A stretch of 64,000 bases of DNA from the NCBI RefSeq assembly GCF_003018255.1, contig NZ_CP027440.1; one strand, 5' to 3'. This document shows positions 61,511 through 62,432 of this stretch, in pieces. The notes under the pieces are model-generated. The model did no database searches. It was given only the letters and a program-made list of their open reading frames with translations, and was not told where the DNA came from. The translations under genes and the position numbers were made by a program. This DNA comes from Escherichia coli (GTDB lineage Bacteria > Pseudomonadota > Gammaproteobacteria > Enterobacterales > Enterobacteriaceae). The number at the start of each line of letters is the position of its first letter. The first letter of the stretch is position 1.

Positions 61511-61866
61511 TTGCTTGAATTAAGAGTCTATCCCATATCGAAGTCGTCAACTTCGTAGTGAGGAAAAGTATAATCCCTGACTGAGAAAAGACATGTCGGC
61601 TATTGTGTAAAGCCATATAGCTCAGACGATGAATATCTACTCGTATTCAGTTGTTTATTGAGGGTGAGTTCCGACCCTGAAACAACAAATAAAATGAACA
61701 GCCAGAGAGTTTACATAGAATTGCACTGGTCTTTTACGATATCTGACATTGTGTAATACATATTCAGCCATGCATTAATTAAAATGTTACGTGTTTAATG
61801 TGAGTCCCTATCTGAAAATAAATAATCCTTCCGGATTAAAATAAATTCTCGCCGGGAAAGAAAGAG

Positions 61867-61998
61867 GAAATAAACCATTAGCGGAAAACCAGCGGCACGC
61901 CAGGGTGACATGCCCCAGTACGGCGGCCCGATAGTCCAGGGTTCAGCGGGGGTACTGATAGTCGCGCCGACTGCATCGAGAACTCCATACAACTTTTT
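61867..61998 (+). pseudogene. Orphan rhs 5' remnant (start codon lost)
   Basis: attagcggaaaaccagcggcacgccagggtgacatgccccagtacggcggcccgatagtccagggttcagcggg parallels the rhs start at 55478 with ATG replaced by ATT, diverging after ~33 codons. Confidence 0.6.
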
Positions 61999-62024
61999 AC
62001 GGAACGTCACCTGATAAAATTTGT

Positions 62025-62432
62025 TCAGTATCGTCTTTTGAGATTCTCAAGGTTATGGAGTAACCAGACAGAACGGACACCACTGTCGGAGATAAAAACC
62101 CCCTGTTTACGCAGCTCGTTGCTGGCCCGGTGCTGACCATGTGTCGGGAAAGCGACGGCGTAATCAACAACAGCCTGTTCAATTGCCTCATCGGTACGGT
62201 TCTTAAGGTTAGGAGCGCGGCGACTACGATTAATCTGCGCATCCACACCGCCTTCAGCGGCCAGTTCGCGGTAACGATAAAACGTATCACGCGAAACGCC
62301 CATGATTTTACAGGCTTTTGATACGTTGCTGAGTTCTTCAGCCAGATTGAGCAAACCGGCTTTGTGTTTGATGACGGGATTGGCAGTATGAAGCATGAGA
62401 GTTACCTCTTGTTTTGGATAAGGATTCGACAC
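62025..62432 (-). pseudogene. ylbG: Truncated transposase-like HTH protein (ylbG-like fragment)
   Basis: 135-aa ORF with only an HTH N-terminal region (...SKACKIMGVSRDTFYRYRE...) and no catalytic domain; I recall a similar pseudogene at this locus in K-12. Confidence 0.55.

Follow-up and report, generated by a model that had tools for sequence, protein, structure and literature searches.

The ylbI/ylbG block at the right end of the RhsD island of Escherichia coli: an rhs 5′ stub joined to an IS481-family relic

Orphan rhs tips and their immunity genes are described by a C-terminal displacement model (Jackson et al. 2009, PMC2935791). In the same study, the ybbA-ybbB position was explained by duplication of the yncG-pptA position, and rhs genes in tandem were reported, namely genes of Clades II and III in SPI-6 of Salmonella Typhimurium and two rhs types at position 6 (yncG-pptA) in E. 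coli SE11 and Shigella sonnei. The name ylbI denotes the K-12 gene that lies between ybbD and ylbG (PMC3946193). The interval from ybbD to ylbG serves as a neutral landing pad in this strain. The gene ylbI is catalogued as an Rhs-family pseudogene of K-12.

Here, we analyzed the equivalent block in a further E. coli genome. The whole stretch of DNA that was analyzed, 64,000 nt long, is called the window, and positions refer to it unless another locus is named. We consider it very probable that the segment 61511–62498 is a non-functional, ancient composite scar with the history proposed below, forming the fixed right end of the RhsD island. The scar is the pseudogene pair ylbI/ylbG, which is already annotated in K-12 and hence already known. 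An earlier note on this DNA was right about the identity of the pieces and overstated their significance.

Arrangement and frequency of the block

The window contains the E. coli ybbP–rhsD–mnmH–allS (RhsD) locus. Its last 10 kb run from ybbP through a PAAR-type rhs gene interrupted by an IS, the gene of a 163-aa immunity protein and the scar to mnmH and allS, the last two both on the minus strand. The features used below are as follows, with the basis of each in brackets.

55478–55572, plus strand: 5′ end of the resident main rhs gene (PAAR-type N-terminus), the paralog compared with the stub (ORF list, BLAST)
60330–61018, plus strand: end of the main rhs gene, comprising the last part of the core and the C-terminal toxin tip (homolog of the orphan ylbH in K-12)
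61019–61510, plus strand: intact 163-aa YbbD-family immunity gene, left neighbor of the scar (NF011298, 1.5e-112, full length)
61511–61876, plus strand: AT-rich non-coding spacer (36% G+C) leading to the stub (sequence, BLAST)
61545–61575, plus strand: sigma-70 promoter-like site TCGTCA-19 nt-TATAAT, pointing to the stub (sequence)
61863–61868, plus strand: Shine-Dalgarno-like AGAGGA, 8 nt before ATT (sequence)
61877–61971, plus strand: rhs 5′ stub (K-12 ylbI), codons 1–32 of a PAAR-type rhs gene with ATG changed to ATT (BLAST, PGAP)
61972–62040, minus strand: 69-nt piece of the catalytic region, IS positions 931–999, about aa 277–299, ...TFRKKLYG... (81% to the intact IS copy, L007 3365–3433)
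62031–62396, minus strand: ylbG, 122-codon N-terminal HTH part of the transposase (PGAP, alignment, profiles)
62032–62498, minus strand: left part of the IS, positions 1–467, 95.3% identical to the intact copy (alignment to the intact IS)
62475–62498, minus strand: left terminal inverted repeat of the IS, TGTATTAGTCGCGACTTGATCTGA (alignment)
Absent from the window: IS positions 468–930 (463 bp) and 1000–1201 (202 bp) (alignment)
62512–63606, minus strand: mnmH (ybbB/selU), the conserved right flank of the island

A match to 61511–62511 was found in 3358 of the 5426 complete E. coli genomes. The earlier note had described a recombination scar zone; the block is indeed a scar of recombination and deletion, but an ancient and fixed one, the full kilobase being collinear with the same junctions in 2726 of the 5426 genomes (about half), and it is not a sign of current instability. 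Over 61511–62511, strain DETEC-S792 is 100% and K-12 MG1655 99.4% identical to the window. In a longer alignment, K-12 matches in a single ungapped piece of 1101 nt (99.27%). In both strains PGAP calls two pseudogenes here: a 96-nt “hypothetical protein, missing C-terminus”, equivalent to 61877–61972, and ylbG, a [quoted passage not shown], equivalent to 62031–62396 on the minus strand.

Six substitutions separate the window from K-12 in the 988 nt of 61511–62498. One turns the −10 box of the promoter-like site from TAAAAT in K-12 into TATAAT in the window, and two alter ylbG residues. This divergence of the spacer, stub and IS relic (0.6%) compares with 1.9% for mnmH (21/1095) and also 1.9% for the allS part (6/326). 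Either the end of the island is apparently younger than the adjoining core genome, or there is a boundary of recombination at the end of the IS.

E. coli SE15 (B2) has no ylbI/ylbG block. Its ybbP-mnmH slot holds a gene for a 667-aa TssD/Hcp protein with a C-terminal extension (an Hcp-toxin fusion), followed by four DUF2931 genes (L010 13667–18344); the slot is a general hotspot for T6SS effector islands. Another arrangement occurs in DETEC-S792 (L002 1–9000), in which two rhs genes lie in series 5′ of mnmH in the order RhsE-type gene with ydcD, ISAs1 copies, vgrG 3′ remnant and second rhs. The order suggests that the RhsE and RhsD loci were rearranged with each other.

Segment 60330–64000 of the window is 96.9% identical to K-12 (L001 7821–11490). 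The tip and immunity gene at 60330–61510 correspond there to the orphan ylbH and to ybbD, located 3′ of rhsD-CT/ybbC (L001 7821–9000); ybbD is split into two ORFs in K-12 and intact in the window. In O157:H7 and similar genomes the tip is annotated within a full-length core protein, as in the window. The active tip of the window is thus the displaced orphan of K-12, which fits the C-terminal displacement model (PMC2935791), and, as read from these alignments, displacement has demonstrably taken place at the RhsD locus in K-12.

The earlier note had expected displaced toxin/immunity cassettes to accumulate around the scar. We found none in 61511–62498, either by BLAST for homology to the 3′ part of the core or by family matches of the ORFs; ylbG is the only ORF there with a family match. 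A collinear arrangement of tip, ybbD, spacer and stub recurs in 2728 genomes, so that the block is the oldest, terminal part of the island. Cassettes accumulate upstream of the scar, which is the fixed right boundary. Nor does the IS inside the main rhs gene mark a scar zone, as had been proposed. This IS3-family element (56931–58263, 1333 bp) is unrelated to the scar, and no genome of the complete E. coli collection shares this insertion in rhsD. It is flanked by a 16-bp direct repeat, CAGTTAACGGCGGTGG (56915–58279), and a 99.6% identical copy on pRM10042-2 (L019) by a 15-bp repeat. Target duplications of IS3-family elements usually measure 3–5 bp, making 15–16 bp unusually long.

The rhs 5′ stub and its leader

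By BLAST within the window, 61877–61971 aligned with the start of the main rhs gene (55478–55572) over 95 nt at 78.9% identity, ungapped and in frame (E 1.2e-17). This was the single additional match of the region in the whole window. The roughly 100-bp rhs 5′ copy of the earlier note is therefore real, though it had been placed 10 nt too far left, at 61867. An ATT at 61877–61879 takes the place of the ATG start, as had also been noticed, and the stub with ATT is identical in the six other genomes that were read (7 of 7 copies including the window). The translation of the stub, ISGKPAARQGDMPQYGGPIVQGSAGVLIVAPT, agrees with the string given earlier. The start codon is exactly where the homology to the main gene sets in; the regions upstream of the two, compared within the window, do not align. 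The homology stops at codon 32, where IS sequence begins. The stub contains none of the start ATG, YD-repeat core, PxxxxDPxGL boundary and C-terminal tip of a functional rhs gene.

A stretch of 95 nt at 79% identity is short, and the peptide scored below the curated cut-off of the Pfam PAAR_motif (PF05488; E 1.9e-4, 22 bits against a cut-off of 27, with only 20 residues matched), as could be expected from a chance or low-complexity resemblance. This reading is refuted by the alignment statistics, and we give it a negligible probability. The ungapped match in frame from the start codon has an E-value on the order of 1e-17, and the stub is 74–78% identical to rhsA, rhsB, rhsC and rhsD of K-12; it is neither too short nor too divergent for homology. 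Most differences fall on third codon positions, G+C rises abruptly from 36% in the spacer to 64% in the stub (rhs core 65.5%, IS relic 47%), a Shine-Dalgarno leader like that of vgrG-linked rhs genes precedes the stub, and PGAP calls a truncated CDS.

Of the 21 differences between the stub and the main rhs gene, 17 lie at third codon positions. The codon changes comprise 14 synonymous and 4 non-synonymous ones (pS 0.65, pN 0.066). This bias indicates that most of the divergence accumulated while both genes were under purifying selection, and the stub is thus not a recently decayed copy of the resident gene, whose 5′ end does not differ from K-12 rhsD over 96 nt. The codon pattern points to a working, deeply diverged rhs gene as the parent of the stub. 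Over the same 96 nt, the RhsA-C and RhsD-E subfamilies of K-12 are 83–85% identical to each other. The stub would represent a further rhs lineage or a mosaic. The RhsH-type gene agrees with it in Leu27 and in its 3′ half, and was rejected as the parent at only 75% identity overall.

An intact parent was not found in several searches. Distant BLAST of the spacer and stub against the 5426 complete E. coli genomes yielded no full-length rhs gene closer than ~81%, and no genome in which the spacer and stub run into an intact rhs gene. A spacer 20-mer, searched for exact matches in 100,044 species-representative genomes, detected no intact parent, its sole match being contig CASFSC010000074.1. This contig (3995 bp, binned as “uncultured Alistipes sp.”) is 99.6% identical to K-12 rhsD-mnmH and is almost certainly E. 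coli contamination of the MAG. A search with the 54-aa chimeric peptide returned only short fragments of ordinary Rhs N-termini, none of which had the P13/L27/V29 signature of the stub.

Recombination between the two rhs starts was also considered. Efficient RecA recombination needs a minimum of roughly 25 nt of identity. The longest identical run is 17 nt, which makes such an exchange unlikely.

The leader of the stub, namely the 18 nt before its start with the AGAGGA, resembles that of vgrG-linked rhs genes. Together with stub sequence it is matched in DETEC-S792 (61859–61971 against L002 4308–4420) and in the RhsE-locus genome (61859–61893 against L003 3817–3851). Further upstream, the promoter-like site at 61545–61575 coincides with a constitutive RpoD promoter listed 5′ of ylbI in K-12 (PMC3946193). 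A consensus scan of the region called no promoter, since the 19 nt spacing lets this site escape a simple consensus. The scan found one terminator-like hairpin, inside the stub on the minus strand, at a frequency expected by chance.

The IS481-family relic, the junction and decay

Directly next to the stub, on the minus strand, lies what is left of an IS481-family element of 1201 bp (61972–62498). As the reference for an intact element we used the 1201-bp copy beside aap/aggR on the pAA-type plasmid pRHBSTW-00320_2 (CP056609.1, L007), which has 24-bp imperfect inverted repeats and encodes a 346-aa transposase. The window shares its first 467 bp, with the left inverted repeat and the transposase N-terminus, at 95.3% identity, but lacks the DDE/integrase core and the right inverted repeat; no Pfam match to the DDE (rve) domain was obtained in the relic. 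The outer end of the left inverted repeat is at 62498, 13 bp past the mnmH stop codon (62512–62514). With the right end deleted, neither a right inverted repeat nor a target duplication is recognizable in the window copy.

On the minus strand, the earlier note had pointed to a 135-aa transposase-like ORF with only an HTH domain. This ORF exists at 62025–62432, starting from a GTG at 62432, and contains ylbG. Profile searches assigned it to the IS481 family (NF033577, 9.8e-25, profile positions 2–112 of 284) and to HTH_29 (7.7e-20), and it shares ~90% amino-acid identity with annotated IS481-family transposases. Owing to the truncation of the protein, its NF033577 score (87.6 bits) does not reach the cut-off of 224 for the full length. 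The ATG at 62396 is the likely start rather than the GTG, as judged from intact copies, which begin translation at the equivalent ATG; the product would be 122 aa long.

The two relics were previously described as neighbors. Both are present, but they are fused rather than merely adjacent: rhs homology extends to 61971 and IS homology starts at 61972, and the direct contact means that one deletion joined them. A CCGAC/TG microhomology is a candidate at this junction, resting on a poorly conserved stretch (81% to the reference IS). The IS481 element is itself truncated there, so that the break in ylbI is a deletion and not the end of an insertion. There is in addition an internal 463-bp deletion within the IS, which joins at a short TTTTxTGA-like repeat. 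No closer relative was found for the 61972–62040 piece than the reference at 81%, against 95% for the first 467 bp.

A further match to the left end of the element (window 62334–62495) lies between ipbA and betA in SE15 (L016 1501–1662; ~160 nt, 76%). It is present in many genomes that do not have ylbG and is probably another old relic of the same IS family. Rfam assigned no family to the block at threshold. The only sub-threshold hits were to psRNA2 (RF02349) on the left end of the IS, with full-length matches in the window (62399–62570, plus strand) and in the IS copy of CP056609.1 (L007 2361–2534, minus strand) at 32.5 and 29 bits, against a gathering score of 65. They cover the IS481-family left end and the 5′ leader, antisense to the transposase, and the psRNA2 family may be related to an IS end.

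Several observations bear on whether the block could still act, through a peptide started at AUU or at an internal AUG (61910), through an HTH-only YlbG that regulates or inhibits IS481-family transposition, or through antisense transcription across ylbG and mnmH. The constitutive sigma-70 promoter 5′ of ylbI in K-12 (PMC3946193), with a consensus TATAAT here, and the AGAGGA 8 nt before ATT would allow a small chance of a transcript or short peptide. The ylbG ORF, its leader and the left inverted repeat are intact, and the block is closer to K-12 than mnmH is, which may leave a little room for residual expression. Against this, the start is ATT and only ~20 PAAR residues are left. The comparison of ylbG with the intact transposase gave a pN/pS of ~0.75, versus ~0.1 between two intact copies, and both differences between the window and K-12 in ylbG are non-synonymous (2 of 2), all from small counts. 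Several strains tolerate IS1 insertions within the kilobase or deletions that are bounded by IS1 and extend into the spacer, about half of E. coli does not have the block, and the interval is in use as a neutral integration site. We found no evidence of a current function. A retained function is therefore very improbable, and we regard the block as non-functional.

History of the block and comparison with other Rhs loci

The most likely parent of the stub is a second rhs gene lying in tandem. This gene is inferred and not observed, since neither the complete E. coli genomes nor the 20-mer scan of species representatives revealed a spacer and stub running on into a full rhs gene. According to the proposed history, the island would formerly have carried this second gene 3′ of the ylbH-type tip and the ybbD immunity gene, and its lineage would have been set apart by a larger distance than that between the RhsA-C and RhsD-E subfamilies. 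An IS481-family element would have inserted just downstream of mnmH. One illegitimate deletion, possibly at the CCGAC/TG microhomology, would have removed everything from codon 33 of the second rhs gene to IS position 1000, another, between the short TTTTxTGA-like repeats, would have taken IS positions 468–930, and the start codon would have decayed from ATG to ATT. The insertion, the deletions and the loss of the start codon are listed in no fixed order. All of these steps would predate the spread of the island through non-B2 E. coli lineages, and the block would today only mark the boundary, while new toxin tips are swapped in upstream.

The same structure would result if the rhs gene whose start is now the stub had been the first occupant of the ybbP-mnmH slot and the main rhs gene, tip and immunity gene had been inserted later, between ybbP and this gene, without any co-transferred pair. 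The distance of the stub to the main gene is as large as that to the other subfamilies, which would fit independent origins, and the slot is an effector-island hotspot, as seen from the Hcp-toxin fusion and DUF2931 genes of SE15. The evidence from other Rhs loci argues against it. A piece of the spacer (61646–61828) has an 86% copy at the RhsE (yncG-pptA) locus in ~82 genomes, located 3′ of an immunity-like ORF and cut by ISAs1 48 nt before the would-be start codon. No spacer copies other than ISAs1-cut ones turned up elsewhere in complete E. coli genomes, and the immunity-like ORF preceding the RhsE-locus copy has no homology to YbbD. At the RhsH (dnaQ-fadE) locus, dsORF-h1 is followed by a comparable stub, an rhs start that ISAs1 has cut to 41 nt. 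The module of spacer and stub thus looks like part of the Rhs elements and not of the chromosomal site. Apart from IS1-generated deletions, no genome was seen that has the stub and ylbG without a trace of Rhs. We therefore consider an original resident gene unlikely, if a serious competitor, and prefer the tandem second gene, also because the spacer copy at RhsE agrees with the duplication and the tandem rhs genes described in PMC2935791.

ISAs1/H-rpt-type elements were observed within ~90 nt of rhs starts in three places, at +17, +41 and −48 nt. The corresponding sites are L003 3836–3852 and 6185–6186 (RhsE) and L005 6019–6058 and L020 8118–8157 (RhsH). Each of these start-proximal elements begins CAGGGAAAGATCATCAG, and the rhs 5′ sequence CAGGGnGAnATGAC resembles that IS end. 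At the RhsE locus, ISEc1 interrupts the rhs start that follows vgrG, 17 nt after the ATG.

A bolder and rather doubtful idea is that the spacer and rhs start are the conserved distal end of a unit by which whole Rhs elements were copied from one chromosomal site to another, this unit being one repeat of an ancestral tandem rhs array that extends from one rhs start to the following one. If true, it would explain why a 5′ stub or leader follows the last immunity gene at dnaQ-fadE, ybbP-mnmH and yncG-pptA, and why ISAs1/H-rpt elements lie repeatedly within ~90 nt of rhs starts; ylbI would then be a fossil of an rhs lineage no longer intact in E. coli.

The significance of the block is small and its uses are mainly practical. 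The right limit of the RhsD island can be placed precisely at the left end of the IS, 13 bp past mnmH. The scar is neutral DNA, in keeping with its role as a landing pad in K-12 and with the insertions of IS1 and the deletions observed there. The active tip and immunity gene of the window, silent as an orphan pair in K-12, offer a clean example of C-terminal displacement. The codon pattern of the stub points to a second, strongly diverged rhs gene formerly present in the island, and a tandem ancestry of the E. coli Rhs elements is hinted at by similar 5′ stubs, which two further Rhs loci contain.

Compared with the systems described before, the block matches ylbI/ylbG of K-12 in order, locus and junctions, with no material difference. 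Like the orphan cassettes (PMC2935791), the scar is a recombination relic 3′ of a full-length rhs gene. The orphan cassettes consist of a 3′ core fragment, a tip and an immunity gene, whereas the scar is a 5′ fragment without any of these. It has no core and therefore cannot be re-activated by recombination with the core of the main gene. The stub is the start of a different gene and not a displaced end.

The ISAs1-cut stubs at RhsH and RhsE are similar to ylbI in being short rhs starts with a leader at the distal end of an Rhs element, truncated by an IS. They break at a clean ISAs1 terminus, however, while ylbI is joined to an IS481-family element, which is truncated at the junction too. The RhsH stub is ~93% identical to its own resident gene, compared with ~78% for ylbI. 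The tandem rhs genes of Salmonella, SE11 and S. sonnei provide a precedent for two diverged full-length genes arranged head to tail; those systems keep both genes, whereas the window keeps 95 nt of the second. Taken with the RhsE and RhsH stubs, the tandems of PMC2935791 would mean that ylbI is most economically derived from a second gene in tandem that has been lost.
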